64,000 nucleotides of DNA from an uncultured bacterium (GTDB lineage: Bacteria > Acidobacteriota > HRBIN11 > JAKEFK01), in the NCBI GenBank assembly GCA_963777505.1, contig CAVZQN010000006.1, positions 320,001 to 384,000 on the forward strand, given 5' to 3'. Both the position numbers and the translations under genes were made by a program. A model generated the notes under the pieces. That model saw only the letters and a program-made list of their open reading frames with translations, did not search any database and was not told the DNA's origin. Positions 15,808 through 63,833 of the stretch are shown one piece after another; position 1 is the stretch's first letter, and every line of letters starts with the position of its first letter.

Positions 15808-15887
15808 GCTTAGGACATTTTAACCACAAAGACGAAGAGTATAAAGGAAAGATGAAGTATGTTGTATAGAGGAGCAAGGAGAAAAAT

Positions 15888-16286: not shown

Positions 16287-16287
16287 A

Positions 16288-20786: not shown

Positions 20787-20825
20787 AGAGGGTATGGTAC
20801 CGCTAGAGCCGTCATTCGTAAAGAC

Positions 20826-23384: not shown

Positions 23385-23450
23385 ACGGGTTTCAGAAAAA
23401 AGCATAGCACAAAGATGGCGAAGGTGATGCGAGATACGTGAAACGGGTTT

Positions 23451-23549
23451 GTAGTAAGGCACGCAGGCTTATCAGCGAAGCGGATGAGGCAATGCCGTTC
23501 AGATCAATACGGCACTGCCCTGCATTTGCTCGGCTGCGTGCCTAACTAC
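23451..23549. repeat. GTAG-type REP-like inverted-repeat element
   Basis: gtagtaaggcacgcag ... ctgcgtgcctaactac outer arms; inner ggcaatgccgt ... acggcactgcc. Confidence 0.7.
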
Positions 23550-31805: not shown

Positions 31806-32159
31806 GTCACTAGCTCCCCATCAAAAGACAGGACTAAAACCCCGCTGTTCGATACTGTTTCAATTCTCTTTCTTCACCGATAAATAAACTGTTGATGGCG
31901 TTATAGGTCAGTGTCTGGCCGGCTGGTGTCAAGAGTCTTGATATCCGGCCGGCCTTATCGTCTTAGGAAACTTTTGACATGGCTTGGTCGAGAAGTATTG
32001 GAGGGGGTTATTGCCTTCTATGCCTACGGTTGTGGCTTGGAGAAAAAAGCCAGAACCGTGCGCAAAGGAGGACAGCTGGGGAGCCGACAATTTTCGCCGG
32101 CCCCCCTCCCTTTGTGAAAACATGTCCTTTTTGCTTTAATGTCCATAAGAGGTGGGCTC

Positions 32160-38511: not shown

Positions 38512-39465
38512 TTACTCTTTGCTCATTTCGAGCCACTGATCCCAGTCTTCTTTTCGGATGTTCTTCAGAGCAGCAGGTCTTTGTCTGATCAAGGACGGAA
38601 GTTCTTTCAGTAATTCCCATCGTGCTTTCATCAAAACTCCCCAGCCTGCTTTTTGCCTGATCATATCGACGTAGCGGAGTTCATCCAGCGTAACAGATAC
38701 GCTTTTTTTCAGGAGAGTTTGAAATGGAATATTTTTGATAAACGTTCGTAGCCGATTCCGTTCGCTTAAGAACCACAAAGCATCTGATGGCAGTTTTGTG
38801 CTGGTTCCATGAACCTTATGATATGCAACCGAATTGGGAACCCAGAATGACTCCGACCCATTGATTCTTGCTTTCCAGCCTGTATCTAAATCTTCGTAAT
38901 AAGCGAAGTATGTTTTATCGAATGCTCCATTACTCATCAGCAGTTCTTTGTTGAAGATTGCAGCACCCGCAGAAGCCGCAAAAATTTGCCGCACTTGATT
39001 TGAGATCGATTCAACGCTGCGATTGTGGTATAGATTTCTGGCGGCACCGCATGGACGGATCCCAAGTCCGCATGAATCAACTTTAGTTTTATCATCGGAA
39101 CGAAGAATCGTTCCTTGAGCGGAAAAACAATGCGGATGATTTTCGATTCCTTTCAACAAATTCTCCAGCCAGTTTTTATCAAGGATCATGTCGTTGTTGA
39201 CTGTAGCAATCCATTTTCCACGGGCTGCCTGAAATGCAATATTGTTTGGGCCTGCAAATCCTTCATTTTTTTCAAGCTGAATTAAATTGACAGCCGGAAA
39301 ATTCTCTTTAACAAATGCGACACTATCGTCCTTGGATCCGTTGTCTACAACAAGAATCTCAAAGTTGTTAAATGTTTGTTGTTGAATGGATGGAAGGCAT
39401 TCCTCGAGATGATGTCTGCCGTTCCAGCTTACGATAACGAAAGATACGAGCGGATTCGCCGGCAT
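38512..39465 (-). CDS. GT2 glycosyltransferase (rhamnosyltransferase-like)
   Basis: VIVSWNG, VDNGSKD, NEGFAG.NN, NND, YYEDLD.GW. Confidence 0.88.
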   Translation of the reverse strand: MPANPLVSFVIVSWNGRHHLEECLPSIQQQTFNNFEILVVDNGSKDDSVAFVKENFPAVNLIQLEKNEGFAGPNNIAFQAARGKWIATVNNDMILDKNWLENLLKGIENHPHCFSAQGTILRSDDKTKVDSCGLGIRPCGAARNLYHNRSVESISNQVRQIFAASAGAAIFNKELLMSNGAFDKTYFAYYEDLDTGWKARINGSESFWVPNSVAYHKVHGTSTKLPSDALWFLSERNRLRTFIKNIPFQTLLKKSVSVTLDELRYVDMIRQKAGWGVLMKARWELLKELPSLIRQRPAALKNIRKEDWDQWLEMSKE

Positions 39466-39469
39466 CGAT

Positions 39470-41509
39470 TTAATCTGCGACGTAACCTAAACTTTTAAGT
39501 TCTTCTGCTTGTTCCGCGCTTATGTTCAGGTCTCTGGTTCTACGCTCAATTCTGGCAATGGAAACCCTGTTACTGGTGGAAGAAGATTTTGTACTTACAG
39601 GAATTGCTTCCATATGAAACGGGGAGTTCAGCGCTTTTCCATTTTGATCAAATACATTGACTCCCGAAATGCTTAATTCTGCATTACTTGCAGGCTCAAC
39701 AAAAACCCAATCCACATCATTGCCTGATGCGTTGAGAGCAATGGACGCTTCTTTATCTGACAACGTTATCCGATCTTGCTCTTCACCTTCTGATAGATGG
39801 ATACGCTTTAAGTTTTGGTTCGATTTCAAAATTGCAGTTCCGTTAAAATCAGCAAACCGGAATAGAAGACCTCCGGATACGTGTTGTTGTATCCATTGAT
39901 CAATAATCCTTTTACCATCGTTCCAGCCTGTAGGTGATTTGAATTCACCTGTTCTTTCGTAGATCGCTTCATCATCACCCTTAAACGCCGCCCAACGCTT
40001 ATCTGGCTGTTCGGCAAATAGGACCCTGTCTTTTGATGATTCAAATAGATCTTTTCCACGAAATGATTTTGGTTTCTCAATGCCTGTTAATTTCAACAGA
40101 GTAGAAGGCAGATCTATCAACGAAACTCTATGTTGCAGCATTTGGGGATTGATATTTTCGCCATGAAGAATTAATGGAACATCAAGAAGTTCAGGTGTCA
40201 CATTGTGTCCATGAGCGAAATAATGTTCATTTTCACCCAAAGACTCACCATGATCCGAAGTTATCGCAACGATTGTACGGTCCATTAGTTGTGCGCTTGC
40301 GAGCTCATTCAAAAATCTTCCGATTTCTTTATCTGCGAAAAAAATCTCGCCATCGTATTTTGCTACATAGTTATTCAAATCAAAAATTCCAGGAAGCTTA
40401 GCATAATCTGGAATGCCTCCCTTTCCTGTGAAATCTCCAACATCCCTTAACACAACCGGAGTAGAGTTTGTCCTGAACTTATTATCGTAAGGGGGTGGTG
40501 GCATATAAGGTGCGTGAGGATCCTGATAATGAAGCCACATAAACCACCTTTCATCTTTGTGCGATTTTAACCAGACCACTGCTGCATTTGTAAGTTGTTC
40601 AGCATTCCGTTCAGGGAGACGCCGATTAATTTCGGTACCCGGAAGGAAGCAGTTATAAACATCAAAACCCTTATCAAGGTTGCGGTTCTTTCTTAATACT
40701 GCATTCCCAACAAAAGCCGCTGTTGAAAACATGTTGCGGCGAAACACTTCTGCAAGCGTCATCTTGTTTTGGTCAAACACCGAGCGATTGTCCTTCAGGC
40801 CATGCTCAGAATAGTACATTGAAGTCATGATCGAAGTGATGGATGGAACTGTGAGCGGAGCGGTACTGATTGCTTTCGTAAATACAGCTGATGATTTGCT
40901 AAATGAGTCCAGGAAAGGAGAAGTGTCTTTTGAATACCCGTATGCAGAAAGATGATCTTTTCTCAACGTATCAATTGTGATCAATAGAACGTTCGGTTTA
41001 TGGACTTCACTCTGTTTGTTAACAACTTTCATCCGTGAAAGAAATACTTCTTTATCGCCCTCGTTGGTTGTCAGTTTTAAAGTAATTTGAGTCTTTCTAT
41101 TGTGAAACTCTGAAAGATCGAAAGAATAATCTTTCCAACGCCTGTCACTTTTTATTTCGGCAGGTGAAAGTTCGGCCTTGTATTCTTTTTCTTTTTTCCC
41201 TGACTTCACTTGTATTTTGATGGTATATATATCGGTCTCGTTTTCCCAATCAGTTTTAGGAACTCCCAACCCGAATGTCAGCAGACTACTTGAACCCGGA
41301 GATGCAGTGAAGCTAAGCGGTGTTCCATCTTTCAAGCTAGCAGACTGTCTGTATTCTTCACGGATGTTTTGTGAGGTTGTGTTAGTGAAAAGAAATGCGC
41401 TGGCCGGCTCATGAGGTTTGAAAAAGAACCGCCACAAAAGGATTGACGCCGCAAGGATGATAATTGCGATTATGATGACCCGCTTTGAGCTTCGGCTTCC
41501 GATTGACAT
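39470..41509 (-). CDS. Sulfatase-like (alkaline phosphatase superfamily) protein 1, membrane-anchored
   Basis: NVLLITIDTLRKDHL..YGY, PLTVPS, HYQDPHAPY, YDGEI, SDHGE, HG; ends LKSLGYVAD. Confidence 0.85.
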   Translation of the reverse strand: MSIGSRSSKRVIIIAIIILAASILLWRFFFKPHEPASAFLFTNTTSQNIREEYRQSASLKDGTPLSFTASPGSSSLLTFGLGVPKTDWENETDIYTIKIQVKSGKKEKEYKAELSPAEIKSDRRWKDYSFDLSEFHNRKTQITLKLTTNEGDKEVFLSRMKVVNKQSEVHKPNVLLITIDTLRKDHLSAYGYSKDTSPFLDSFSKSSAVFTKAISTAPLTVPSITSIMTSMYYSEHGLKDNRSVFDQNKMTLAEVFRRNMFSTAAFVGNAVLRKNRNLDKGFDVYNCFLPGTEINRRLPERNAEQLTNAAVVWLKSHKDERWFMWLHYQDPHAPYMPPPPYDNKFRTNSTPVVLRDVGDFTGKGGIPDYAKLPGIFDLNNYVAKYDGEIFFADKEIGRFLNELASAQLMDRTIVAITSDHGESLGENEHYFAHGHNVTPELLDVPLILHGENINPQMLQHRVSLIDLPSTLLKLTGIEKPKSFRGKDLFESSKDRVLFAEQPDKRWAAFKGDDEAIYERTGEFKSPTGWNDGKRIIDQWIQQHVSGGLLFRFADFNGTAILKSNQNLKRIHLSEGEEQDRITLSDKEASIALNASGNDVDWVFVEPASNAELSISGVNVFDQNGKALNSPFHMEAIPVSTKSSSTSNRVSIARIERRTRDLNISAEQAEELKSLGYVAD

Positions 41510-41589
41510 TTGAAACTTCTAAAAATAACATTCCTAACTCAGCGCAACAAGCCGCTGGGCTCGATGCCATTAATTGTTCGCCACCCATA

Positions 41590-43476
41590 ATGAGAGAACC
41601 TCAACCTAAGATTGGTACTTTTTTCAGCTTATTCGTAGGCTTCGCGTTATCTGCATTTATTGGGTTGCTTGAAGCTATTGTTCTTAAAGTCTCGCATAAA
41701 GCGATTCCAGGCAGTTCAGATCCCTGGACCATTCATGCTGCATTCACTATTTATGGTCTCACAGGACTCATTTTAGCTGCTTTGTTATTTCTACTTTTTC
41801 GCAGCCTGAGGTTTCCTTCAAAAATGTTCATAACTATTCTTGCCTTCTGGGCAGGTGTTTGGGCCATTTATGTTTGGAACCTCATGATTCCTTCCGGATT
41901 TTTGTCTGCTGCTGGATTGGCCGGCACAGGACTGGCAATCTTGATGATCTTTGGATTTATGAAGTTTGTTGCACCAAAGATTCATGCCGCGGTTCCATCA
42001 CGTTATTTTACTGGAGCATCATTAATGATGCTTGTCTTATCTGTGTTCGCACTTATCTTTCAAAGTCCGATAGCTGCAGGATCCAAGAAACAAAATGGGC
42101 CAAATGTTTCTTTGCCGAATGTAATCCTGATTACGCTAGACACCACAAGAGCTGATCATCTCACACCTTACGGTTACAGTCGCGATACAACTCCATTTCT
42201 AGCAAAGCTAGCATCGGAAGGTGTGCTCTTCGAAAATGCATTTGCAGTCTCTTCCTGGACTTTGCCATCGCATTCATCAATTTTCACCGGCAAACTTCCC
42301 TCAGTGCATGGTGCTACATATCAGCATTTGTGGCTCGATTCATCCGAAGACTGTCTTGCAGAAATTCTAAAACGCAAAGGCTATCAAACCGCTGCTTTCG
42401 TAAGCGGACCATTTCTGCTTGCTGCATTCAATGTCACCCAGGGATTTGAATATTATGATGATCAGCTTGATCCATTATCAGGAATACAACGCCTGATGTT
42501 AGTAAAAGTAATCCGCAGATTTCATCAAAAGCCATTGTGGTGGGTAGACGGACAAAGGAATGCAATTGAAGTCAATCAACAGCTCTTCAAATGGTTCGAT
42601 CATAACTCCGAACGAAAACCATTTTTTGCTTTCATTAATTACTTTGACCCGCATGACCCTTATTTGCCGCCGGCTGCATACAGCAAAATGTATAGAACTT
42701 CTCCATCAAGAATGAATGGAAGAATTGAAGGAATTTATTCTGATCGAGCAACTGGTGAGCGGATTGCTAAAGACGGAAAGCCCTTGCGTGAAGATGATTA
42801 CCAGGCCCTGAAAGCGCTATATGATGGTGAGATCCGTTTTATGGATGATCAGCTCTCAAAGCTATTTGATTATTTAAAGCAAAATAGTCTTTTATCAAAT
42901 ACGCTTGTGGTCATTACTTCAGATCATGGCGAAAGCCTTGGTGAGCACAAAATTCTGGATCACGGACATACCCTCTATGAAGAACAGATCAGGGTTCCAT
43001 TACTTATGATTGGCCCAAATATTCCAAAAGGAAAAAGAATCTCGGGCATCATACGGAATATCGATATACTTCCTACGTTGATGGAGTATTTAAAGTTTAC
43101 AGCTCCTTCAGATATCCAAGGAAAGAGCTTCCTTTCAAATTTAGCAGATGCTCCGCATGATGGCAGAATTTATGTAGGAGAGATCTTTCAAGATCCGAAT
43201 ACAAGAGTGAAAAGGTTTCAGCGGGATTTGAAAAGCCGTCGTGATGATACTTCAAAACTATTGTGGGCTTCCAATGAACGTCACGAATTTTACGATCTTC
43301 CTTCCGATCCTGCCGAAAATCACAATTTGTATCAGACAAAGCAAGAAAATTTTAATTTGATCTCTACGGAACTATTTAACTATTTGAAACCGCTCCCCAA
43401 AAAGGATCGTCGTAAAAAACCTGAGATAGATGAAGAGTCGCTTGAGAGTTTAAAGGCCACAGGATATTTAGATTAG
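41590..43476 (+). CDS. Sulfatase-like protein 2 with N-terminal TM bundle
   Basis: About five TM helices, then NVILITLDTTRADHL, WTLPSHSS, NYFDPHDPY, YDGEI, SDHGE; ends LKATGYLD. Confidence 0.85.
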   Translation: MREPQPKIGTFFSLFVGFALSAFIGLLEAIVLKVSHKAIPGSSDPWTIHAAFTIYGLTGLILAALLFLLFRSLRFPSKMFITILAFWAGVWAIYVWNLMIPSGFLSAAGLAGTGLAILMIFGFMKFVAPKIHAAVPSRYFTGASLMMLVLSVFALIFQSPIAAGSKKQNGPNVSLPNVILITLDTTRADHLTPYGYSRDTTPFLAKLASEGVLFENAFAVSSWTLPSHSSIFTGKLPSVHGATYQHLWLDSSEDCLAEILKRKGYQTAAFVSGPFLLAAFNVTQGFEYYDDQLDPLSGIQRLMLVKVIRRFHQKPLWWVDGQRNAIEVNQQLFKWFDHNSERKPFFAFINYFDPHDPYLPPAAYSKMYRTSPSRMNGRIEGIYSDRATGERIAKDGKPLREDDYQALKALYDGEIRFMDDQLSKLFDYLKQNSLLSNTLVVITSDHGESLGEHKILDHGHTLYEEQIRVPLLMIGPNIPKGKRISGIIRNIDILPTLMEYLKFTAPSDIQGKSFLSNLADAPHDGRIYVGEIFQDPNTRVKRFQRDLKSRRDDTSKLLWASNERHEFYDLPSDPAENHNLYQTKQENFNLISTELFNYLKPLPKKDRRKKPEIDEESLESLKATGYLD

Positions 43477-43478
43477 AC

Positions 43479-44588
43479 ATGTTTATGAAAATTCCTCTCG
43501 TAGATGTTGCTTCACAATACAGTTCTATTCAAAACGAACTTGAGCCTGTTGTACTGAATGTCTTGAGAAGTGGAAACTACATACTTGGTGAAGAGCTGGC
43601 GAACTTCGAAAAAGAATTTGCTGAATTTTGCAATACCAAGTTTGCTGTGGGTGTGAATTCTGGAACGAGTGCGCTGCATCTGGCATTGCTTGCTGCAGGT
43701 GTGGAGCCAGGATCGGAAGTCATTACAGTGCCATTTACGTTTGTTGCCAGTGTAGCCACAATTCTTTACACCGGGGCTCGCCCGGTTTTTGTAGATATCA
43801 ATCCGGATACTTGTCTGATGGATGTCAATCAGGTTGCAGATAAAATTTCTGAGAAAACAAAAGCCATAGTCCCTGTGCATCTTTACGGGCATCCAGTCGA
43901 TATGGATCCGCTTCTCGATCTGGCGCGAAAAAATAACCTTATTGTGATTGAGGATGCCGCCCAGGCGCACGGAGCTCGTTACAAACAACGCCTTGTTGGA
44001 GGTTTTGGGGAAATTGGATGTTTCAGCTTTTATCCAAGCAAGAATCTTGGAGCTGCTGGTGAGGGCGGCGCCATCACAACAAATAATGAAGCTTTCTACA
44101 ATAAAATTCGAAAGTTAAGAAACTGGGGAAGTGATGACCGCTATCATCATGAATTTCTTGCCTACAACTTCAGGCTAGAAAATATTCAAGCGGCAATACT
44201 GCGGATCAAGCTTCGTCATCTTAATGATTGGAATATGGAGCGCACCCAAATAGCGGCCGAATATGATTCTGCTTTTAGGAATACGAATGTTCGTTTACTT
44301 AGAAAGTCTGACACTTCGCAGCCGGTGCATCACATCTATCCAATATTTTCAAAGAAACGTGATGCTATAAAAATGAGTCTCGAAAAAGCAGGAGTTTCAA
44401 CAGGGATTCATTATCCTGTGCCCATTCATTTACAACAAGGATATCAATTCCTGGGTTACAAGGCGGGGGAGTTCCCGGGTGCGGAGCATGCGGCTGAGGA
44501 AACACTTTCAATTCCAATTTATCCTGAACTTACATCCGAGAAACGCATCTATGTAATTGAATCCGTTTTGAACAGTCTGAATGGATAA
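43479..44588 (+). CDS. DegT/DnrJ/EryC1/StrS sugar aminotransferase
   Basis: NSGTSALH, VHLYG, EDAAQAHG, SFYPSKNLG..GEGG, HYPVPIH.Q. Confidence 0.93.
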   Translation: MFMKIPLVDVASQYSSIQNELEPVVLNVLRSGNYILGEELANFEKEFAEFCNTKFAVGVNSGTSALHLALLAAGVEPGSEVITVPFTFVASVATILYTGARPVFVDINPDTCLMDVNQVADKISEKTKAIVPVHLYGHPVDMDPLLDLARKNNLIVIEDAAQAHGARYKQRLVGGFGEIGCFSFYPSKNLGAAGEGGAITTNNEAFYNKIRKLRNWGSDDRYHHEFLAYNFRLENIQAAILRIKLRHLNDWNMERTQIAAEYDSAFRNTNVRLLRKSDTSQPVHHIYPIFSKKRDAIKMSLEKAGVSTGIHYPVPIHLQQGYQFLGYKAGEFPGAEHAAEETLSIPIYPELTSEKRIYVIESVLNSLNG

Positions 44589-45279
44589 CATACAAGTCTC
44601 TCTGTGTTTTCCTGTTTATAACGAAGAACCAACGATCGCACAGGTTCTTGAAGAAACATATCTTCAAATGTCCGGCTCAGGCGTAAGTTATGAAATTGTA
44701 GTCTGCGTTGATGGTTCTACTGACAAATCGCCGGAAATTATTCGCGCCGCAAGTCAAAGAATTCCGAAGTTGCGAGTGATCGAAAATGATGGCCGCAAGG
44801 GGATTACGTATACATTTGAACGATTGTATATTGAGGCTCGCGGACAATTTGTATTGTTAAATTCAGCAGATCGTCAATGGCCGGCCTCCATCATTCATCC
44901 CATGCTGAAATTATCAAAACAGTTCGATATCGTAATCGCTTCAAGAAAACAAAAGCATTACAGTACCACCCGAAAATTTGTTTCCTGGATGTTTAATGCA
45001 ATTCCTGAGCGCTTGTTTGGGGTACGCACCTACGATGCTGGCGCAGCAAAATTATTGAAGAAGGAAATTATTGAGCGATTTCCAATTGTCTCGCAATCCC
45101 CATTTGCTGAAGCAGAACGGATCATACGCGCTGTTCGTTCAGGCTACACGATTACTGAATATCCCGTAGAAACTTCTCCACGAATACACGGGAAGCAACG
45201 GGGCATCAGCCCCCGCCTTGTACTACAATCCGCCCGGGATGCGATGAAGGTGTGGGTTGCGTTGAGAGAAAGAAAATAA
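44581..45279 (+). CDS. GT2 glycosyltransferase (polyprenol-P sugar synthase-like)
   Basis: FPVYNEE, DGSTD, NSADRQW, R.FVS..FN, R.HG. Confidence 0.8.
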   Translation: MDNIQVSLCFPVYNEEPTIAQVLEETYLQMSGSGVSYEIVVCVDGSTDKSPEIIRAASQRIPKLRVIENDGRKGITYTFERLYIEARGQFVLLNSADRQWPASIIHPMLKLSKQFDIVIASRKQKHYSTTRKFVSWMFNAIPERLFGVRTYDAGAAKLLKKEIIERFPIVSQSPFAEAERIIRAVRSGYTITEYPVETSPRIHGKQRGISPRLVLQSARDAMKVWVALRERK

Positions 45280-45295
45280 CTTCGTGTCTTTGTGG

Positions 45296-46243
45296 CTAAA
45301 ACACTTGTTGGAATTTTCCTGTGAGCCGTTTCACTGACTTCACGCTATAAAGCGGCGCTTTTTTCACTTCAGTCATGATGTAAGTCACATATTTTGAAAG
45401 CATCCCCAGAACGAGGAAGAGTCCGGAGAATCCAAATGTCATGACAAGAACAAGAGTCGTCCATCCTGGGACGATAGAATTAAGAATGAAGTGAATAAAC
45501 ACAGAATACGTTCCAATCGCTATCGATAGAAGTAAGAAAAAGAAGGCGATATAAAAACTTAACTTTGTTCCAACGGACGAATGAATCAAGATAAGTTCAA
45601 ATGCCATATCGATCCGTTCGTGGAATCGCTTTTCTGTGTGAATCTGACGGATCTCTTTTGAAGGCTTATATAAGATTTCTTCAAAAGGGAAGCCGGATAA
45701 TCTCATCATTGCTTTTCTGTATCGAATTTTTTCTTTCGATGACAGGATCCTGTTTAATGCCCTCCGGCTAATGATTCGCAAACGTTCGGTCCGCACAACA
45801 ATCGGAATTTCTGAAATGCGATTGAAGATGAAGTAAAACAACTTTGAAAAAATTCCGATACGTTGAGAAGGACAGGCGCTCACTACATCGATTCCACCTT
45901 TGCATTTTTGAAATAGTTCGAAAATCAGATCGATCGGATAATCGATAATTGAAGTTTCTACTTCAATTACAAAATCACCCATTGCAAGATCTGAACCCGC
46001 AACGATTGCCAACTCGGTTCGATGATGCCAGGAAAGATCAACCAGCAGAATATTTCCAGTCAAGTAGCCAGAATTTTCTATGCGTTCGACAGTTCGATCT
46101 GTGCTGGCATCGTTAACCAGGATAAGCTCAAAATTTTCGAAATGTTCTTCAAGAAATTTATGATATGCGCCTAAGAAAGATTCAATCGTGTTTTCAGCGT
46201 TGTAGATATAAACAACGACCGACAAAAAAGCCTTCTCTTTCAT
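45296..46243 (-). CDS. GtrB/ArnC-like GT2 with two C-terminal TM helices
   Basis: LSVVVY.YN, VNDASTD, PGWTTL, C-terminal TM pair; DxD replaced by VET. Confidence 0.75.
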   Translation of the reverse strand: MKEKAFLSVVVYIYNAENTIESFLGAYHKFLEEHFENFELILVNDASTDRTVERIENSGYLTGNILLVDLSWHHRTELAIVAGSDLAMGDFVIEVETSIIDYPIDLIFELFQKCKGGIDVVSACPSQRIGIFSKLFYFIFNRISEIPIVVRTERLRIISRRALNRILSSKEKIRYRKAMMRLSGFPFEEILYKPSKEIRQIHTEKRFHERIDMAFELILIHSSVGTKLSFYIAFFFLLLSIAIGTYSVFIHFILNSIVPGWTTLVLVMTFGFSGLFLVLGMLSKYVTYIMTEVKKAPLYSVKSVKRLTGKFQQVF

Positions 46244-47379
46244 AAGAATTGCCTTTTGAGGTCATATATGGTGCTGATTTTTCCGGATAGAACAGAAATG
46301 AAATTCGGATTTGAATTTACTTTCTGAATGAAGGTAGGCCGGGCATCATCAATTTCAGAAGCATGGGGTATCGTTTTCACCGCAAAAAGTGCCTCCTCAA
46401 ATTCTATCGTAATTGATTCATGTAAGTATTTTGAGGCAAGCTGACGCATTAAGGGAAATGCTGATTCCGGGCGGGCTTCACAAGTGGAGCAATTTTGAAG
46501 CTGCTGAGGAGTGCAGTTTGGATTATTCTTCTGACAATCAAAGGTAGGAACTGGCGACGTGGATGTCAGGTGTGGCGTATATGGCACAGCGCTCAGAACA
46601 TGAAAACCACTTGTTCCAAATGGAACTAATGAGAAAAATGGTCCGTCCATGACAGTCATTCCGAAATTTTCGGCTGCTGAAGAGACTTTGCAAAGTGTGA
46701 CTTCACATAATTCGTACTTCAAAGGAAGTTTGGGAAGTCCAAACAATTCCTGAGTCTGATTCAAGCTCGCGTAGGTAGCGTTAATAACATTACTTGCCTT
46801 AAAAATTGATCCATCGCTCAGTTGAAGCCTGTAATTTTGGTCTTGAATCTCCGCTTTAATAACGTGAGTGGAGTAAAGTATTTCAGCGTTATCATTCGAT
46901 TGAATTTTGCCTAACAAATAATTACGAATTTTTGGTGCATCAAAAGAATATTCTTGAATGCTGAATGCTGCTTCGATCAAATCGGGCTTAAAGTATGGAG
47001 ATGGATCGACTTCGGAACATGGAATTCGGGCATGGTCACAAAATTTTTGAAATTGTTCGGCATTCGTTTGAGAGTAATGACTTGCAATCGCATAAATATT
47101 TTCAAATTTGTTCATCAAGGCAAAATCAAATTCTTCACAAAATTCGCGAAAATATGAAGCTGTTTGTTTTGCTGTGGTAAAACTTCGTGGATAGTGATAT
47201 CCATTGTGGATTCTTGCTTGATTCACAAAGGAAGCTCTTTGAAAACTTGCTGGCTCATACTCAATGACTGCGACTGTATTTCCTTTTTCTGCAAGAATGC
47301 AGGCAGAGTACAATCCGTAAATTCCTGCGCCCAGAACTACATAATCAAATTCTTTAATATTATTAACCACGAAGATCAC
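46240..47379 (-). CDS. FAD-dependent oxidoreductase (DAO-like)
   Basis: VVLGAGIYG, AS.VNQARIHNGYHYPRS, MDGPFFS, RPT, SGKI. Confidence 0.85.
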   Translation of the reverse strand: MIFVVNNIKEFDYVVLGAGIYGLYSACILAEKGNTVAVIEYEPASFQRASFVNQARIHNGYHYPRSFTTAKQTASYFREFCEEFDFALMNKFENIYAIASHYSQTNAEQFQKFCDHARIPCSEVDPSPYFKPDLIEAAFSIQEYSFDAPKIRNYLLGKIQSNDNAEILYSTHVIKAEIQDQNYRLQLSDGSIFKASNVINATYASLNQTQELFGLPKLPLKYELCEVTLCKVSSAAENFGMTVMDGPFFSLVPFGTSGFHVLSAVPYTPHLTSTSPVPTFDCQKNNPNCTPQQLQNCSTCEARPESAFPLMRQLASKYLHESITIEFEEALFAVKTIPHASEIDDARPTFIQKVNSNPNFISVLSGKISTIYDLKRQFL

Positions 47380-47393
47380 GAAGATTTACGAAG

Positions 47394-47873
47394 TTATTCA
47401 TTTTTATCAGTAATATAGCGCGTAATTCTTGCGGGAACTCCCACTACAACTGCGAAATCAGGAACGTCATTTGTCACAACCGCGCCTGCCCCAATCATTG
47501 CATTTTTACCAATTGTAATTCCTCCCATGATGACTGCGCCGCTGCCAAGGCTTGCTCCATGTTTTACAAGAGTTCGCACACATTGCCAGTCTTTTTCAGT
47601 TTGGAGTCTTCCCTCAATAGTCGCGCGAGGTTCGATCGTATTAATAAACATAACTCCATGACCAACGAAAACCTCATCTTCTATCGTTACCCCTTCACAG
47701 ATGAAAGAGTGGGAAGAAATCTTACAGCGTGATCCTACTACCGCATTTTTCTGGATTTCGACAAAAGTGCCAATCCTGGTGCCGTCACCGACGACACATC
47801 CATAGAGGTTCACAAGCTCCGGATGATGAATTTCAACTCCATTTCCAAGCCTGACGTCATTGCTGATGGGCAT
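47394..47873 (-). CDS. Hexapeptide-repeat sugar N-acetyltransferase (WbpD-like)
   Basis: NLYGC.VG..T.IGTFVEIQK, KISSHSFICEGV, IGAGAVVT.DVP..VVGVPAR. Confidence 0.88.
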   Translation of the reverse strand: MPISNDVRLGNGVEIHHPELVNLYGCVVGDGTRIGTFVEIQKNAVVGSRCKISSHSFICEGVTIEDEVFVGHGVMFINTIEPRATIEGRLQTEKDWQCVRTLVKHGASLGSGAVIMGGITIGKNAMIGAGAVVTNDVPDFAVVVGVPARITRYITDKNE

Positions 47874-48021
47874 ATTCCGCGGTGAATTCTATAGACTAGA
47901 ATTTTCACTGTCAATGATAATACATTCTCACAAACGAACTCACCAATTCGCCAGCGAAACTTGATTTGAGTGGTTGCTATCAGTAAACTAAAAAGCTTTC
48001 AATGTAAGGTTGTTTTTTCTC

Positions 48022-49381: not shown

Positions 49382-49402
49382 CCGCATTAGTTGAATATCA
49401 AC

Positions 49403-54800: not shown

Positions 54801-55045
54801 TTAAGAGTACGAGATGAATTTTCATAAATGTCCAGCACTGTGCCATTTGAACGGAGGACGTAAGTCAGTGATCTGTCAGGGTTGATTTTGGAATCTAAGG
54901 GCCCATCCGGGATCCGCAGTTTTACTGCCTTCCCTTCGTGGGATGTGATAACTAGCTCTTTTTGTTTCTGGTCCCATAAGTGGCTACCAGCCAGAGCATT
55001 CAAAGTTAAAAAGTGAAACACTATACACAGGGCAAAACGGCTCAA
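51789..55045 (-). CDS. Secreted surface protein B: YVTN-like propeller, P-x-V...VV-W repeat region, two Calx-beta domains, shared C-terminal domain (+1 frameshifts near 52553 and 52203)
   Basis: TTG 55045 with AGGAGG RBS; ORFs 52451-55096, 52183-52599 and the frame of 51789-52046 join; SINDVSIFEGDAG and SISDISVAEGNAG Calx-beta starts. Confidence 0.8.
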
Positions 55046-55106
55046 AGTCCACCTCCTCCTGCCTGAGTTTATACTCGAGATCGCCGAGAAAAGCAATTAA
55101 AAGCAG

Positions 55107-55132
55107 CAGGGACGGGCCTTAGCCCGCCCCTG
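55107..55132 (-). terminator. GC-rich hairpin between the two paralogs, possible terminator
   Basis: cagggacgggc-ctta-gcccgcccctg, followed on the minus strand by ctgctttt. Confidence 0.45.
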
Positions 55133-55139
55133 GATTCGA

Positions 55140-58071: not shown

Positions 58072-58184
58072 AATCCACCTCCAAGTCCCGTGTTGATTTC
58101 GATCTCCGATCGGAAAAGCACTTACAAAACTTAACTGTTCACCCGTTTAGTCGTGGCAGGAAGTAATGCTGGGAGCAGTGCAAA

Positions 58185-60771
58185 TCATTCTAATTTCCCA
58201 AAGACCAGAAACCAGATTAGCAGACCCATCACTGTAAAAGCAATGGCCAGCCGGAAATACGGGACTTCAAACGAAAACTGTATGCCGTGACTGCCGGCTG
58301 GAACGCGTATGGCTTGAAATGCGTAGTTGGCCCTGAGTATTGGAGCTTTTTTACCATCTAAGAAGGCGTGCCAACCCGGATTGTAATTTTCGGCAAATAC
58401 CAAAAGAGTGTCGTTGGACGTTTTAACTGTTGCCGTCATCGTAGAGGATGTTTTGTCAGTCATGATCAATGATGCATGAATTTCGTTTGCGAAAAAACCG
58501 GGATTCTCTTCTAGAACTGTGTAAGCATTCGGATTAAATTCGGAGCTTCTAATATGCTCTAACGCTTTCGCAGAATCCTGGATGACAACGATTTTGCTGG
58601 AAAGATAAGCCAATGGCACAGCATTTCTGTTTTCAAATATTGTCAGACCTTTTGATGAATGCACGACTGGATATTTTTCGGAAGTGGCTCCGGGAGCTGC
58701 AAGAATGTAACGGATTGCTTGCATGTCGATCCACCCTCCGCTCCAAACATCGAGACTTTCCGCGGGCTTGACGTAATGCAGAATATCATTTGGCCGTCCG
58801 CGATGAAGCCGGAAATATCTGGATGGATAAAAACCAAGATACCCTGAGGATGTTGGAATCGTGTAATGAAGAAGAGAATCTGGTCTTGCGACAAACTCGA
58901 AGGAATTGAAATCGAAGAAGCGTACTCCGCGCGTGTAGTAATCATCCAGGGAACTATAGTTTTTCAGCGGAACATCAAGAAATTCTTTTAGCTTTTGAAC
59001 TTCCATGACCCGAGACTCTTTTGTTTTTTGAGCAAGAAATTCTAATGATTCAATTCCTTTTGGCTCAAATGCTACTGACGGGGTGAAATAAATTGGAGGA
59101 TCGGTTCGTCCGTGATAAAGCAAATCAACAAAAGTGAGCCCCACGATCAGCGACATACAAATTGGCGCAGCGATTTTCCCGCGAGCAAGTAGGATCAAGA
59201 GAATTGCGGCAGTCAAACACACGAGGGTTGGAATCACAAAAACTTTTGCTGTTTCTGCAAACATGGATGGCAGAGTTGCAAATGCTTCCGAATAAAAAGA
59301 TTCAGCATTCTGGTTCCAGGGAAACGATTTTTGTTGCGCAGAGTAATAGTTCCGTACGCTATTCTGAAGAGTGGTTCCCATGAGTCCAGCTGTCGTAAGA
59401 AAAATAAACCCGAACGCAAATACTATCGTTGTGATTTTGAGCAATGAAATTGCACTATTGCGGTGTACTAACGTTTGAAGAGCATTCAACCCAAATGCGG
59501 CAAGTATGCTAAATGCAAAAACGCATAGAACCAACAATCTCGAATGATCCAGCGTTCTTGCTCCGCTCCAAAAAAAACTAACAATTTTGTTAAAGAGATC
59601 GAAATTCAAAAGTGTCAAAAACAACAAAGGGAACACTGCTAGCAACCAAAAAAAGCGAATTCGGTGATCACTCCAAAGTCTTAGTGAAAGCAATGCAAAC
59701 AGAAAAGGAAGTAATCCGACATAAGCAAGAATCCGGTTGTAGACCGAACCTGGTTGACCGAAAACCAGCCGCTCCCAGATTCCATCTTTCATTTCCAGCG
59801 GCGGCTTTAAAAGAAGCTTACTCAAAACATTGTTTTCTGTTTCTCCATACAAATTTGGAATGAGCAGCGTTGGAAGCTTGCGTGGTGATAAGAAGTTTCT
59901 TCCCGCGTACATTTCAGCTGTTTCATTTGTACCGCGCGGGCTGTTCCTCAATCCTGAAGCCACGCTGAACAATTCAGGACTTGCAACAAGCATAGAAATA
60001 ATCAACGCACTGGAAAAATAGATTCCGAGTCGCATGCGGTTTTCTAGTTTCCAGAGCTGAAACAAAGCGTATGCTGCAAAAGCAGCTAGATTGTAAATCC
60101 ATAGTTGAGGATGATCGCCTAGAAATTGCGCAGTCAATGCAAACACAAGTAGATGAAATCCAAAACGTTTTCCACTGCGCGAATTGATGTACGGAAAAAA
60201 GTATGAGTGGTAACCAGCATAAGGTTCCGTTATAACTGACAGTTCCAAACCATCGCATAAAATGGCTGTTCCACATAAATGCGATGCCTGCAAGCAAACT
60301 GGCCGTGCGGCTCAATCCCAACGATTCGCAAAAAAGGGACATGAACCATCCGGCAAGAATGAATTGAAGGATGATCACAAGCGCATGCCCGGTTCCTTCT
60401 GGTAACAAATAGAAAATTGGCGTCAAGACATCGAACACCGCCACCTGTGTTCCAACAAGCTGCGTGCCTGAAAAAATGTTCGGCGTCCAGAATGGAAATT
60501 CACCGCTGCGAACTATATTCCGAACTTCCTTTCTTAATGGGAATATCGATAGAGCTGCATCAATATTGTGATAATGTTTCGCGGGATTGAATTCATGTGC
60601 ATAACTCCCTGAGTCATATGATTTCCAGGGATAGTTTTGATACAGCGGATTCGCGTCAATCGGTATTTTTCCGGTGAAAAAGAAAGGGGAAAAGAAAATC
60701 AGATTCAGCAAACAGAAAAAAAAGAGCGGGAACAACCGGGAGGAAACAAATTTAGGAATTGCAGCTTGCAC
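58185..60771 (-). CDS. YfhO-family GT-C membrane protein (+1 frameshift near 60180)
   Basis: ORFs 59974-60771 and 58185-60293 join: PFWTPNIFSG, FLGDHPQ, AYVG, C-terminal FAENYNPGW.A.LDG...ANYAFQAI.VPAG.H. Confidence 0.8.
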
Positions 60772-60839
60772 AAATATCGTTATTCTTATTTATCGTTTTG
60801 TAGAACTCGGTAAATTATAGCCGTAAATTCTAAAGAGAT

Positions 60840-60945
60840 AGAAGATAGAGAATTGAGGATAGAAAGAGGAAGATTGGGTATAGTATGACATTGGTCAGGT
60901 CATGAGGCAGATTTTCTATTCTCTATCATCAATTCTCTATCCTCT
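60840..60945. repeat. GAGGATA-type heptamer inverted repeat straddling the start codon at 60902
   Basis: agaagatagagaattgaggatagaa versus ctctatcatcaattctctatcctct, 22/25 complementary. Confidence 0.7.
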
Positions 60946-62300
60946 CTTAATTCTGTCGCTTGCTTTTACAGCTTGCCAAAATAAGCAGGAAAAATCGAAC
61001 CTGGTTTTGGTAACAATCGATACGCTTCGGGCGGATCATCTTGGAATCTACGGATATAAACGACCGACTTCTCCAAATCTTGATAGGCTGGCCAAAGAAG
61101 GGATCTGGTTTAGTAATTGTTATTCACAGTCTGCTACGACTGGCGCCTCCCATGTGTCGCTCTTCACCTCGCGCTATCCACAGAGTCATGGTGTTCTTGC
61201 CAACCGTGAAAAATTTCCTGATTTTGCTTCGATGATGGATAGCTTTCGAACTGCAGGTTATTCGACAGCAGGCTTCGTTTCAAGCGCAGTATTAGCCGGA
61301 GACTTTGGAATCAAAAAGGAGTTTGATCATTTTGATGAAACTTTAACTCGAGCAGAAAAAAATCGCGTTAATCGCTATGAACGGACTGCAAAGGACACTT
61401 TGTCGGCAGTCGAAAAATGGATTCAAACAAGCAAAGGTCCATTTTTTGTTTGGATTCATTTGATCGATCCTCATGGGCCATACCAGGCCCCCGAAAACGC
61501 GGATTACTTTGTCTCCGATACGTTGTCACAAACCGAGAGTCCGATACTTGAATTTGCCGCTTCGAACTGGGAGTTCAATAAAATTCCTTTATACCAAAGG
61601 TTGGACAATAAAAAGGAAGCTGCTTACTACATCGCCCGATATGATGCCGAAATCCGGTATACCGATGAAGCACTGGGAACATTTTTTAATTTTCTAAAGA
61701 ATTCGAAAGTCTACGAAAATACTGCCATTGTTATAACCGCCGATCATGGCGAAACAATGGCTGAGCCAAATCATCTAAGACATTTTTCGCACAGCACAAT
61801 TGCGTACGAAGAAGTCGTCCGCGTTCCAATGATCCTGAAGGGTTCAAATTCGGTAGATTTTAAAAAGTTGGATTCTTCAAAAACAATTCGATTAATGGAC
61901 ATTTTCCCTACGCTGTGTTCACTGTTCGGATTGAAGAAACCCGAAAGTTTACAAGGTATTGATCTCCAAAATACAGATAACAAAAATGATTCGATCTTTT
62001 CATTTGGAGCATACGGCACAGAGTTTTTGGAGAAGAAAATAGGAACACAATTTACCGTATTAAATGGCGACCTTTCGATATGTAGTCAGAACTGATAATT
62101 CGGCCGAGGAATTATATGATCACAAGAATGATCCTGCCGAGGGAGTTAATGTCGCAGCGGATCATCCGGAAAAGATGGCTGAATTCCGGAAGGAGCTGAA
62201 GACATTTTTCGAAAAAGTGCCTAAGGCTGAAGGTCAATCGATGCACATCAATGAGGAACAGGCTGAAAAGTTAAAAGCTCTTGGTTATACTCAGCAGTGA
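60902..62300 (+). CDS. Sulfatase-like protein 4, probable lipoprotein (+1 frameshift near 62071)
   Basis: Lipobox-like FTAC; VTIDTLRADHL, TTGASHVS, HLIDPHGPY, YDAEI, ADHGE; second ORF EELYD..DPAE, ends LKALGYTQQ. Confidence 0.82.
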
Positions 62301-62306
62301 AACTGA

Positions 62307-63074
62307 ATGATTCACGGTAAACGAATTGTCGTTGTAATGCCCGCGTATAACGCTTCGAAAACCCTCGAACTCACCTATTCTGAAGTCCCTTTCGATATTG
62401 TTGATGAAGTCATTCTTGTGGATGACGAATCGAAGGATGAGACTGTAGAAGTTGCCCGGCGTCTGGGAATCACAAAAGTAATTCGTCATGAAAAAAATAA
62501 AGGTTATGGCGGAAATCAAAAGACATGTTACAAGGAAGCTCTTCGTTCAGGCGCCGATGTGATTGTAATGCTTCATCCGGATTATCAGTACACTCCTTTG
62601 TTAATTGAAGCGCTTGCTTTTCCTGTTGCTAAAGGAGTGTTTCAATCGATGCTCGGTTCGCGGATTCTGGGAAAAGGTGCTCTCTACGGCGGTATGCCAT
62701 TGTACAAGTACATTTCCAACAGGATCCTGACTCTGATTCAAAACATTTTTTTGAATCACAAGCTTGCTGAGTATCACACTGGCTATCGGGCTTTTGACAG
62801 GGCAGTGCTTGAACGCCTTCCATTGGAAGAGAATTCGGATGACTTTATTTTCGACAATGAAATGCTCGCGCAGATCATTTTTCAAGGTTATGAGATCGGC
62901 GAGGTTACATGTCCAACGAAGTATTTTGAAGAAGCGAGTACAATAAACTTTGTGCGCAGCGTTCGATATGGTCTTGGAGTATTGCGCGTTTCGATTTGTT
63001 TCCGATTGCAAAAATGGGGACTTGGAAGGTACAAGATATTTGACTTTGAATCCGGTAAGAAGCTTCAGCTTTAA
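62307..63074 (+). CDS. GT2 glycosyltransferase
   Basis: VMPAYNA, VDDES.D, GYGGNQK, LHPDYQY, GSR, YHTGYRA. Confidence 0.9.
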   Translation: MIHGKRIVVVMPAYNASKTLELTYSEVPFDIVDEVILVDDESKDETVEVARRLGITKVIRHEKNKGYGGNQKTCYKEALRSGADVIVMLHPDYQYTPLLIEALAFPVAKGVFQSMLGSRILGKGALYGGMPLYKYISNRILTLIQNIFLNHKLAEYHTGYRAFDRAVLERLPLEENSDDFIFDNEMLAQIIFQGYEIGEVTCPTKYFEEASTINFVRSVRYGLGVLRVSICFRLQKWGLGRYKIFDFESGKKLQL

Positions 63075-63113
63075 GCGGAATATTCGTATCCGGCGGTTTG
63101 AGGAAGTCAAAGT

Positions 63114-63833
63114 TTGAACAAAAATTCTTTGATTTCAGTCGTAATGCCCTGTTATAACGAAGGCAAACTCGCTGTCGATCACGCCTTAAAAGTCCGGGAT
63201 TTCCTTTCTCGTTTGAAATGGAATTTCGAACTCGCTATTTGTGATGACGGGACAAATGATGGATCGCAAACGTTAATCGATACACTTCAAAATTCTGACA
63301 TTCGCGTCTTTCATTATGCGAATGGCCCCTCCAGGCGCGAAAATCTCAGCGAATGTTTGCGTCAACTCAATGGATCAATCCTCATCTATATGGATATTGA
63401 TCTTTCAACGGATCTTGAATGTTTACCTGAGATCGTAAATCCACTGTTGAATGATGAATGTGATATTGCAATTGGGAGCCGTTATCAAAAAGGCGCAACA
63501 GTGCACCGTGAATTCTCACGATTTCTCTACAGCCGTCTGTATAACGGAACAATACGATTATTGCTTCGTTCCAAGATTCTTGATCATCAATGTGGATTTA
63601 AGGCGTTTAAACGGGATGTCTTTCATTCGCTAGCAACCAGCGCGGGATACGACACGCTCCATCAACGTGGATGGTTCTGGGACGCAGAAATATTAATCAG
63701 AGCGCAAAGGGAAGGCTATAGAATTCGTGAAGTACCCGTGCGCTGGAATGCCGCGAAAAAAAGCTCTTTTGACTTCTTCAGAGAGTTGAAAGTAATTCCT
63801 TATCTGCTGAAGTTTCGAAAAAGAATCAGCTAA
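63114..63833 (+). CDS. GT2, dolichyl/polyprenyl-phosphate glycosyltransferase-like
   Basis: VMPCYNE, DDG.ND, YMDIDLS, GSRY, DHQCGFKAF, WFWDAEIL..A. Confidence 0.87.
   Translation: MNKNSLISVVMPCYNEGKLAVDHALKVRDFLSRLKWNFELAICDDGTNDGSQTLIDTLQNSDIRVFHYANGPSRRENLSECLRQLNGSILIYMDIDLSTDLECLPEIVNPLLNDECDIAIGSRYQKGATVHREFSRFLYSRLYNGTIRLLLRSKILDHQCGFKAFKRDVFHSLATSAGYDTLHQRGWFWDAEILIRAQREGYRIREVPVRWNAAKKSSFDFFRELKVIPYLLKFRKRIS

Follow-up and report, generated by a model that had tools for sequence, protein, structure and literature searches.

We analysed a 64,000-nucleotide stretch of DNA from a soil acidobacterium (hereafter the window; positions 320001-384000 of contig C6 in genome G000, which comprises 5.23 Mb in 14 contigs and is 95.9% complete), and describe here a locus at 38512-63833 in which 18 genes are densely packed directly after serS (37064-38332). 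The locus holds four genes of the sulfatase-like family PF00884, two YfhO-type glycosyltransferases of the GT-C class, genes for family 2 glycosyltransferases (GT2), an amino-sugar set and a pair of secreted paralogues, surfA and surfB. Its sulfatase-like proteins are threonine-type (Thr-type) enzymes, in which a conserved Thr stands where sulfatases carry their catalytic residue. Our preferred reading, which we put at slightly less than an even chance, is that this is a lineage-specific locus decorating a cell-surface glycoconjugate outside the cytoplasm, where YfhO enzymes would transfer sugars and the Thr-type enzymes would handle anionic esters. Most likely, it represents a known kind of glycosylation logic in an unusual make-up, seen in one acidobacterial genus. 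The best match of the housekeeping protein GlyQ, at ~67% identity, comes from Acidobacteriota metagenome-assembled genomes.

Gene content of the locus

Positions are those of the window (1-64000) unless a contig label precedes them (C4:, C8:, L097: and the like). Pfam matches were judged against curated gathering cut-offs, and NCBIfam matches against equivalog cut-offs. Six same-strand strings of genes make up the locus, with spacing inside a string ranging from an 8-nt overlap to a 113-nt gap:

String 1, minus strand: sulf1 then GT2a, with a 4-nt gap
39470..41509, minus strand: sulf1, 679 residues (PF00884, 165 bits), LITIDTLRKD motif, one N-terminal membrane helix (membrane-like segment 6-32), a ~140-residue pre-domain and a C-terminal ...LKSLGYVAD
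38512..39465, minus strand: GT2a, 317 residues (PF00535, 91 bits), without a membrane helix, closing the sulf1 operon
String 2, plus strand: sulf2, DegT aminotransferase and GT2b, with a 2-nt gap and then an 8-nt overlap
41485..43476, plus strand: sulf2, 663-residue open reading frame (ORF; PF00884, 175 bits), five N-terminal membrane helices
43479..44588, plus strand: DegT/PseC-like pyridoxal phosphate-dependent sugar aminotransferase (PF01041, 401 bits; best NCBIfam match PseC, 283 bits, below the cut-off of 423)
44581..45279, plus strand: GT2b, 232 residues (PF00535, 65 bits), short and soluble, DPM1/ArnC-like
String 3, minus strand: hexapeptide acyltransferase, flavin adenine dinucleotide (FAD) oxidoreductase and GT2c, the last two overlapping
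47394..47873, minus strand: hexapeptide-repeat sugar N-acyltransferase, NeuD/PglB/VioB-like (PF00132, 69 bits; TIGR03570, 83 bits, below cut-off)
46240..47379, minus strand: FAD-dependent oxidoreductase of the DAO family (PF01266, 62 bits), overlapping GT2c by 4 nt
45296..46243, minus strand: GT2c, CsbB/GtrB/PgfS-type, C-terminal membrane-like segments (223-284)
String 4, plus strand: sulf3 then YfhO1, with a 9-nt gap
48010-49381, plus strand: sulf3, N-terminal signal or anchor, two ORFs matching PF00884 positions 1-192 and 201-301
49391-51805, plus strand: YfhO1, intact GT-C enzyme of 804 residues with 13 membrane-like segments (PF09586, 60.3 bits against a cut-off of 28.5, the match spanning only the C-terminal ~100 residues)
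String 5, minus strand: YfhO2 (first), surfA and surfB
60771-58185, minus strand: YfhO2 (PF09586, 58.1 bits against 28.5, likewise over only the C-terminal ~100 residues), read-through frame of 867 codons
58071-55140, minus strand: surfA, a surfB paralogue with one Calx-beta domain
55107..55132, minus strand: strong terminator-like hairpin of 11 pairs, nine of them G-C, directly 3′ of the surfA stop, from a consensus scan only
55096-51792, minus strand: surfB, with signal peptide, YVTN-like propeller, seven ~55-residue Trp repeats, two Calx-beta domains and a ~170-residue C-terminal domain
String 6, plus strand: sulf4, GT2d and GT2e, the sulf4-GT2d gap being 6 nt once the sulf4 frame is followed
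60902-62300, plus strand: sulf4 (PF00884, 174 bits), lipoprotein candidate with a lipobox-like ...LAFTAC
62307-63074, plus strand: GT2d, 255 residues (PF00535, 71 bits), soluble, DPM1/PpgS/AglJ-like (AglJ and PpgS matches below cut-offs)
63114-63833, plus strand: GT2e, 239 residues (PF00535, 72 bits), soluble, DPM1-like

GT2e is followed by msrB and, 0.9 kb further on, by a fifth paralogue of the sulfatase-like genes, sulf5, which lies ~1.4 kb past the window end. Four of the five copies are the first gene of a packed string that continues with GT2, DegT or YfhO genes.

All five enzymes pass the PF00884 cut-off of 25 bits, those of the window with 83-175 bits. The original prediction for this DNA had spoken of four sulfatase-like enzymes; it was right about the fold, but it fell one short in number, sulf5 being outside the window, and sulfatase chemistry does not fit the Thr/His motif that these proteins carry. 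The C/S-x-P-x-R formylglycine motif of type I (S1) sulfatases is absent from sulf1-sulf5, whose nucleophile motifs read T-V-P-S-I (sulf1), T-L-P-S-H (sulf2), T-G-P-S-H (sulf3), T-G-A-S-H (sulf4) and T-T-P-S-H (sulf5). When aligned to the sulfatase 4upi, Thr and His take the first and last positions of x-P-S-R, with the T-G-A-S-H of sulf4 opposite A-G-P-S-R. A word-index search for the family, in which 8000 candidates were scored, yielded 5111 proteins at E <= 1e-20; the sources of these proteins label them 'arylsulfatase A-like enzyme', 'sulfatase' or 'sulfatase-like hydrolase/transferase', and a relative of sulf2 at 77% identity is labelled Acidobacteriota by its source. We aligned 57 of the 120 listed matches, spread over the list, together with five sequences from this locus and from a congener genome, G001. 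T259 (sulf2 numbering) is invariant in all 62 aligned sequences, and invariance is complete or almost complete at D219, T220, R222, D224, H225, P261, H263, H390, D480, H481, H488 and H493. Since an invariant Thr replaces the Cys or Ser from which formylglycine is made, sulf1-sulf5 cannot, judged by their sequences, be type I formylglycine sulfatases. The SulfAtlas authors likewise point to many Thr-type sequences in PF00884; they state that formylglycine cannot be made from Thr and that these sequences are not countable as sulfatases (PMC5066984).

An AlphaFold2 model of sulf2 (predicted local distance difference test score 89.8, predicted template modelling score 0.87) consists of five membrane helices (45-193) and, after them, the catalytic domain. 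Its best Protein Data Bank (PDB) matches in Foldseek are the phosphonate monoester hydrolase 4uph, a choline sulfatase and S1 sulfatases (~E 1e-24 for 4uph and 6g5z), and LtaS, GacH and EptA are not among the listed matches. In NCBIfam, the Thr-type enzymes reach 19-39 bits with LtaS (cut-off 970), 18-63 bits with EptA/MCR models (cut-offs 500-1250) and a higher 81-178 bits with the arylsulfatase PRK13759, which is still below the cut-off of 481. One trait of LtaS, GacH and EptA is present, namely a Thr nucleophile with Asp and His ligands (T259, D219, D480 and H481 are conserved). By sequence and modelled fold, we place the Thr-type enzymes in the arylsulfatase/phosphonate-monoester-hydrolase branch. 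The N-terminal membrane part varies: sulf2 has its five helices, sulf5 a similar long hydrophobic region with a weak DUF7789 match, and sulf1, sulf3 and sulf4 a single anchor, a signal peptide or a lipobox. As all five carry export or membrane signals, they should act outside the cytoplasm. The start of sulf2 is likely ~35 codons downstream of the ORF start, because close relatives have 628 residues.

The family is also abundant elsewhere in G000, with ~26-36 copies (45 ORF profile matches, merging to about 26 loci). Among the 45 ORFs, 21 have T-x-[PAG]-[ST]-[HR] and three C-S-P-[ST]-R, and the remainder are fragments or variants that the pattern missed. Because the family is so multiplied in this genome, a sulfatase-like neighbour is less striking than it looks. 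Thr-type copies also occur in tandem arrays of three to six (e.g. C4:239754-261509, C4:733747-739746 and C3:37433-41394), and many are ~750 residues long with extended C-termini, where database relatives often have TPR repeats. The same-strand neighbours upstream of sulf5 (L182:4565-9165, corresponding to G000:C6:387565-392165) encode a 1097-residue Sortilin/BNR-repeat propeller protein and a 384-residue ORF that matches no family and is overlapped by a 119-residue ORF; the exported propeller protein beside sulf5 is another pairing of a propeller with a membrane-anchored Thr-type enzyme.

The glycosyltransferases fit the view of the original prediction that GT2 and YfhO form a two-step pair for extracytoplasmic glycosylation. 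GT2c, which is CsbB/PgfS-like, has PgfS as its best NCBIfam match, over positions 3-303 of 308 (E 5e-32), but its 111 bits are below the cut-off of 500 and do not make it an equivalog; we regard it as a candidate polyprenyl-phosphate sugar synthase. The best NCBIfam matches of YfhO1 and YfhO2 are PgfM1 and PgfM2, and GT2b gives weak matches to ArnC and to dolichyl-phosphate hexose transferase. YfhO1 has no sequence relative among solved structures, and a single-protein search of species-representative genomes found no close relatives of it. GtrA/GtcA flippases (PF04138) are without a match in the whole genome, whereas the same search was positive in 8 of 14 control genomes. The glycosyltransferase stock of G000 comprises six YfhO-type genes, several GT-C genes of the PMT_2 type and 33 GT2-like ORFs, yet no GtrA-family match.

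The two secreted proteins are 70% identical over ~690 residues, and their Calx-beta domains (PF03160) score 36.2, 38.5 and 54.5 bits against a cut-off of 27. The N-terminal domain of the family matches the Methanosarcina mazei surface-layer protein 1l0q (E 2.9e-8, profile positions 54-175), and Atlas leads for it are YncE-like propellers. The region that follows is covered by no Pfam family in surfA. It has seven repeats marked by invariant Trp residues at 338, 393, 449, 505, 561, 612 and 666, and this spacing of ~55 residues leads us to predict a seven-bladed propeller. Trp-marked ~55-residue repeats of the surfA type recur in tandem in very large ORFs on unrelated metagenome contigs (L153, L160 and L173-L175), so that the repeat appears to be a widespread propeller-like module without Pfam coverage. 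The ~170-residue C-terminal domain occurs in 25 ORFs of G000 at E < 1e-10, forming the C-terminus proper in those checked, and may be a general surface-retention or sorting module. One of its carriers is a 730-residue He_PIG (putative Ig) protein at 32139-34331, and only the three ORFs within the window lie near sulfatase-like, YfhO or GT2 genes. This domain has no PDB match by sequence and only weak Atlas leads, and its scores for the concanavalin/LamG-like family PF06439 (17.3 bits in surfA, 20 bits in the G001 protein) are below the cut-off of 26.8. Reading the surfA and surfB translations by eye, we noticed only runs of Gly as linkers and none that was disordered and rich in Ser/Thr. A single-protein search of species-representative genomes returned no close relatives of surfA.

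The original prediction, which had been made from the sequence alone, gave the gene order and strands of the right half of the locus exactly, including the sulfatase-like gene that adjoins each YfhO gene (sulf3-YfhO1 and YfhO2-sulf4) and the secreted proteins between them; its layout omitted the left half, from GT2a through the acyltransferase. It had also found no recognisable wzx, wzy, wzm, wzt or gtrA, in agreement with the lack of Pfam matches to Wzx, Wzy and ABC-transporter families in any of 20 locus ORFs and with the genome-wide search for GtrA. The gmhA, rfaE1 and waaL genes that it placed nearby correspond to gmhA-like, rfaE-like and Wzy_C (WaaL-type) genes upstream of the locus. Its observation is thus confirmed, and its interpretation is partly supported, as described below. 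The window has no tRNA genes, and no integrase or transposase family is matched among its ORFs, so that there is no evidence here of an 'island' that is mobile in the strict meaning of the word. G+C content in the left sub-cluster is 0.418, compared with 0.44. Promoter and terminator scans gave 26 and 24 hits, against 34.4 and 19.1 in shuffled sequences, neither above shuffles.

Further upstream, the window contains a second group for lipid-linked glycosylation at 14662-19849, entirely on the minus strand, with two PMT_2-type GT-C genes (14662-15807 and 16288-17628), a 499-residue ORF without a family (17622-19121) and a GT2 gene (19118-19849). Two FHA-domain proteins (163 residues, and 878 residues with two FHA domains) are encoded at 20295-23462, between this group and gmhA.

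Conservation in a congener and interrupted reading frames

Searching the genomes of 40 relatives besides G000, we found full-length relatives of the surf proteins in one, the congener G001, and nine others match the repeat region only. The corresponding G001 locus covers 14 kb and is rearranged: a sulfatase-like gene, sulfA, faces YfhO and the GT2e orthologue, which are followed by msrB, an IS110 element and then sulfC, surf and sulfB on one strand. Both YfhO (853 residues, 33-36% identity to YfhO2) and surf (1061 residues, 34% identity) are intact. Compared with the orthologue baseline between the two genomes (72% for msrB, 66% for sulf5/sulfC and 61% for GT2e, L097:3669-4364), the 33-37% identity of surf, YfhO and sulf2/sulfB indicates that these evolve much faster. 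Surface-exposed or specificity-determining parts often evolve fast. We also computed a tree of the sulfatase-like domain with 11 rows, for which a strict filter and a profile from the island copies were used, so that most paralogues are absent, and from which the split sulf3 was left out; sulf2 groups with sulfB of G001 (99/97) and sulf5 with sulfC (100/100). For the FAD oxidoreductase, neither G001 nor four other genomes of the family yielded an orthologue; only Rossmann-motif matches turned up. Sequence comparison thus gives a conserved core of sulfatase-like genes, YfhO, GT2e and surf, and a left third of the locus of which at least the FAD oxidoreductase has no counterpart in G001; the genes for the amino sugar have the look of a variable addition. 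The G001 locus is interrupted or flanked by IS110 and IS21 elements (L097:5413-6891 and 14850-16597), the latter with IstB and a Mu-transposase C-terminal domain, and by an Eco57I-like restriction-modification gene.

Five genes of the G000 locus contain a total of six frame breaks, all of the +1 type: sulf3 (~48697), surfB (~52540 and ~52200), surfA (~56005), YfhO2 (~60174) and sulf4 (~62071). Removal of one base opens frames of 462 codons in sulf3, 985 in surfA, 867 in YfhO2 and 471 in sulf4, and removal of one base at each of its two breaks gives surfB a frame of 1101 codons. Read past its break, sulf4 closes with the C-terminal ...LKALGYTQQ typical of the family, 6 nt short of GT2d. Contigs from the public run X1 (6% of sampled words present) are ~92% identical to the window and cover 55210-62197 (583 differences) and, as short pieces, 47900-48981; ~49331-55054, with YfhO1 and surfB, is not covered. 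At all four covered breaks (48697, 56005, 60174 and 62071) the X1 relative is without one base, and the only other indels are two single bases, both in spacers. Past the surfA break, 24 of the 40 differences listed (of 615) hit the third position of a codon in the surfA frame (p = 5e-4), a preference which argues that selection acted on this frame during most of the divergence.

The six breaks are thus probably single-base insertion errors of the assembly, as far as sequence comparison can tell, and such errors may be concentrated at the locus because the region varies between strains. The alternative, which we consider rather unlikely, is that the module from sulf3 through surfB, surfA and YfhO2 to sulf4 is truly decaying and that the breaks are real mutations. 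It could explain why six breaks fall in 14 kb while none was seen in the other 48 kb of the window, and why no break lies in a long homopolymer, but against it stand the +1 type of all six breaks, the pieces without any in-frame stop seen, the single extra base at each covered site relative to the X1 contigs, and the codon-position preference downstream of the surfA break. Furthermore, across G000 there are ~190 overlaps of at least 120 nt between same-strand open frames in different frames, a count that is a rough indicator (a version with at least 45 nt, giving 630 pairs, was too noisy), and the locus is among the denser clusters. This suggests many single-base assembly indels in the genome, or many pseudogenes. 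Such pairs are densest at C8:496000-562000, C4:1230711, C6:67200 and C6:367992, and two further YfhO loci (C6:417104 and C8:349252) also have short open frames, of 182 and 302 residues. We rejected programmed frameshifting, since the four covered breaks share no slippery motif and the X1 relative simply does without the extra base.

Possible functions of the locus

Under the preferred reading, the DegT aminotransferase, the hexapeptide acyltransferase and the FAD oxidoreductase would, going by their families, make an N-acylated amino sugar, and the GT2 enzymes (GT2c at the membrane; GT2b, GT2d and GT2e soluble) would load single sugars on polyprenyl phosphate. After a flippase had turned the lipid-linked sugar over, YfhO1 and YfhO2 would, on its periplasmic face, pass the sugar to an acceptor. 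The Thr-type enzymes would then add or trim anionic esters on the same product, which could be phosphoglycerol- or phosphoethanolamine-like groups or sulfate, and the surf proteins would bind, or depend on, the decorated glycan. We give a slight edge to an envelope glycan over the surf proteins as the acceptor, because we saw in surfA and surfB none of the Ser/Thr-rich linkers of known YfhO-type protein targets. That enzymes of the alkaline phosphatase (AP) superfamily add or remove anionic groups here had already been proposed in the original prediction, and this idea gains from the invariant Thr and from the precedents of GacH and Agl30/Agl31 (see below).

Several findings weigh against decoration of an envelope glycan. 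As sequence and fold place the Thr-type enzymes in the arylsulfatase/phosphonate-monoester-hydrolase branch and not with LtaS, GacH or EptA, hydrolysis would fit them as well as group transfer; in sulf1, sulf3 and sulf4 the membrane part is limited to a signal peptide or one anchor; the genome-wide GtrA search gave no candidate for the flippase step; and the concentration of frame breaks in the module also counts here. Conservation rests on one congener, the X1 relative being too close to be independent. A metagenome contig, L149, has a full-length surf gene followed by a sulfatase-like gene, but it is near-identical to G001 in the tree and is therefore no independent case of this adjacency. 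Among 201 genomes of the phylum, 82 have YfhO homologues (79 of 198 without the unpublished G035, G058 and G153). We inspected 20 YfhO loci with flanks of ~8.5 kb, of which 19 belong to other genera and one is a second YfhO locus of G001, and found a sulfatase-like gene near one and a GT2 gene adjoining four. At 80 loci of the sulfatase-like family from other phyla, neither YfhO nor surf is present (0/80 each), GT2 is present at seven, and tandem copies of the family at 17. Similarly, 32 metagenome loci with the repeat region only have no sulfatase-like, YfhO or GT2 gene. Within G000, 6 of 26 merged sulfatase-like loci are within 3 kb of a GT2 gene (random mean 1.25); five of these are in or beside the locus, and outside it the figure is 1 of 21. 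Two of the six YfhO loci have a sulfatase-like neighbour, both at this locus. The original prediction had proposed conservation of the gene neighbourhood as its test, and this was borne out in G001, where three sulfatase-like genes, YfhO, GT2e and surf lie within 14 kb, and not beyond the genus. A literature search found no paper on the pairing of YfhO with sulfatases and none on YfhO in Acidobacteria.

Among other explanations, protein glycosylation is in our view less likely, yet it is a serious competitor with several points in its favour. In this scheme, YfhO1 and YfhO2 would O-glycosylate surfA and surfB as Pgf enzymes do, and the Thr-type enzymes would modify the protein-bound glycan in the manner of Agl30/Agl31. 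YfhO2, surfA and surfB form one same-strand string and are presumably co-transcribed, the G001 surf gene lies between two sulfatase-like genes on one strand, and GT2c and the YfhO enzymes have PgfS, PgfM1 and PgfM2 as their best NCBIfam matches. Moreover, the surf N-terminal domain resembles an archaeal surface-layer protein (1l0q), and the carriers of the C-terminal domain that are close to sulfatase-like, YfhO or GT2 genes are precisely the three of the window. However, the Pgf scores are far below cut-offs (111 against 500 bits, and 18-39 against 1400-1500), and in surfA and surfB we saw none of the Ser/Thr-rich disordered regions that are described as the streptococcal glycosylation targets (10.1101/2024.05.05.592596). 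The hairpin 3′ of surfA would suit a separately tuned abundant protein and is silent on modification. An extension of this scheme would see in the locus a dedicated machine for an anionic surface-glycoprotein coat, in which YfhO glycosylates surf and the Thr-type enzymes, as membrane-anchored transferases, add phosphate or sulfate groups. We consider this improbable; if true, it would give a function to the huge 'arylsulfatase A-like' family (more than 5000 matches at E <= 1e-20) and provide a bacterial counterpart of the archaeal Agl30/Agl31 sulfotransferases.

The genes could also be neighbours without a shared function, with the Thr-type enzymes being exported phosphodiesterases or phosphatases for scavenging or turnover that lie in a variable, rearranging surface-gene region. 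This would agree with the many family loci of G000 (~26 when merged), often tandem and away from glycosyltransferase genes, with the contexts seen in other phyla, with a fold closest to hydrolases, with the IS110 and IS21 transposases at the G001 locus and with the lower G+C content of the left sub-cluster. Against it, four of five copies head tight strings with GT2, DegT or YfhO, and the families are kept together in G001, with sulf2/sulfB and sulf5/sulfC as orthologous pairs, despite inversion and IS insertion; we regard this explanation, too, as having only a small chance of being correct. Very improbable, finally, is a role in carrier recycling, by which the Thr-type enzymes would cleave polyprenyl-phosphate sugars that have stalled on the outside of the membrane and so free the carrier, as UshA and UpsH do in Bacillus subtilis. 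Such sugars are phosphodiesters, and the Thr-type motifs (I-D-T-L-R-A-D and T-x-P-S-H) are similar to those of nucleotide pyrophosphatase/phosphodiesterases. PF01663 is matched at ~E 1e-12 to 1e-17, sulf2 and sulf5 are membrane-held by five helices, and each YfhO gene adjoins a Thr-type gene. Yet five paralogues would be excessive for one housekeeping task, 19 of the 20 other YfhO loci have no such pairing, and UshA and UpsH, the carrier-liberating hydrolases described in B. subtilis, have other folds (alpha/beta hydrolase and metallophosphoesterase; PMC11898649).

Decoration of an envelope glycan remains our preferred reading, and two points matter beyond G000. Thousands of 'arylsulfatase A-like' database entries belong to an invariant-Thr branch that cannot work as sulfatases, and since this branch is included in sulfatase counts for Acidobacteriota, Planctomycetota, Gemmatimonadota and others, such counts overstate sulfatase capacity. 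The locus is one of few sites where Thr-type members stand in tight operons beside GT2, DegT and YfhO genes, and it thereby offers a testable guess at their class of substrate. To our knowledge, all worked-out cases of YfhO-type glycosylation come from Gram-positive bacteria, and a locus of a diderm that pairs YfhO with secreted propeller proteins provides a handle on the poorly known cell surface of Acidobacteriota. Its reach is limited by the fact that the linkage of sulfatase-like genes to YfhO is seen in one genus only.

Comparison with known systems

The closest parallel in overall logic is the group A carbohydrate cluster of Streptococcus pyogenes, in which GacI is reported to make GlcNAc-P-undecaprenol and the GT-C enzyme GacL to put GlcNAc on the carbohydrate (10.1101/180810). 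GacH, a polytopic membrane protein whose extracellular domain has the sulfatase fold and whose nucleophile is Thr, is described as adding glycerol phosphate to the GlcNAc side chain (10.1101/337519). As in the GacI/GacL/GacH system (with SccH in S. mutans), a GT2 enzyme, a GT-C enzyme and a membrane sulfatase-fold Thr enzyme are encoded in one cluster here, although GacL is likened to YfhO1 and YfhO2 by its described role and not by sequence. GacH crosses the membrane with eleven segments, and its LtaS-like domain binds Mn through E/T/D/H, whereas the enzymes described here have five helices or a single anchor. The first metal ligand is Glu in GacH and LtaS but Asp here, where the domain is of the arylsulfatase/phosphonate-monoester-hydrolase branch (10.1101/337519 for GacH). 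The present locus also differs in its diderm host, its five paralogues and its two secreted proteins.

The pair of the GT2 enzyme CsbB and the GT-C enzyme YfhO, with GtcA, is described for glycosylation of lipoteichoic acid in Bacillus subtilis and Listeria (PMC5836110). GT2c, with its C-terminal membrane helices, and the PF09586 YfhO enzymes resemble this pair, but our genome has no GtrA/GtcA match, has lipopolysaccharide-core genes and has no LtaS-family match at the cut-off. PgfS, PgfM1 and PgfM2 are reported to glycosylate the adhesins Cnm and WapA in Streptococcus mutans (PMC5856776; 10.1101/2022.10.10.511621). In NCBIfam, GT2c and both YfhO enzymes match them best, and surface-protein genes are involved in both systems; besides the low scores, the present locus differs in having no PgfE epimerase and no Ser/Thr-rich acceptor region that we could see.

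For sulfatase-like AP-superfamily genes within a glycosylation cluster, there is a precedent in Agl30 and Agl31 of Halobacterium salinarum, which are encoded in an N-glycosylation cluster and are reported to be needed for glycan sulfation, one of them being soluble and cytoplasmic (PMC11980604). The likeness is one of description and not of sequence, and that system is archaeal and acts on an N-glycan, whereas the enzymes studied here are exported or membrane-anchored. The type I (S1) sulfatases and S1_0 phosphonate monoester hydrolases (4uph, 2vqr, 6g5z and 4upi) are similar in both structure (Foldseek E 4e-25, TM-score ~0.66 on the target) and sequence (phmmer E 7e-26), and differ in having a Cys or Ser nucleophile and a motif Arg where the present enzymes have Thr and His. 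The surf proteins, lastly, share a propeller domain with the archaeal 1l0q, and continue it with seven Trp repeats, Calx-beta domains and a C-terminal domain that is common to ~25 ORFs of the genome.

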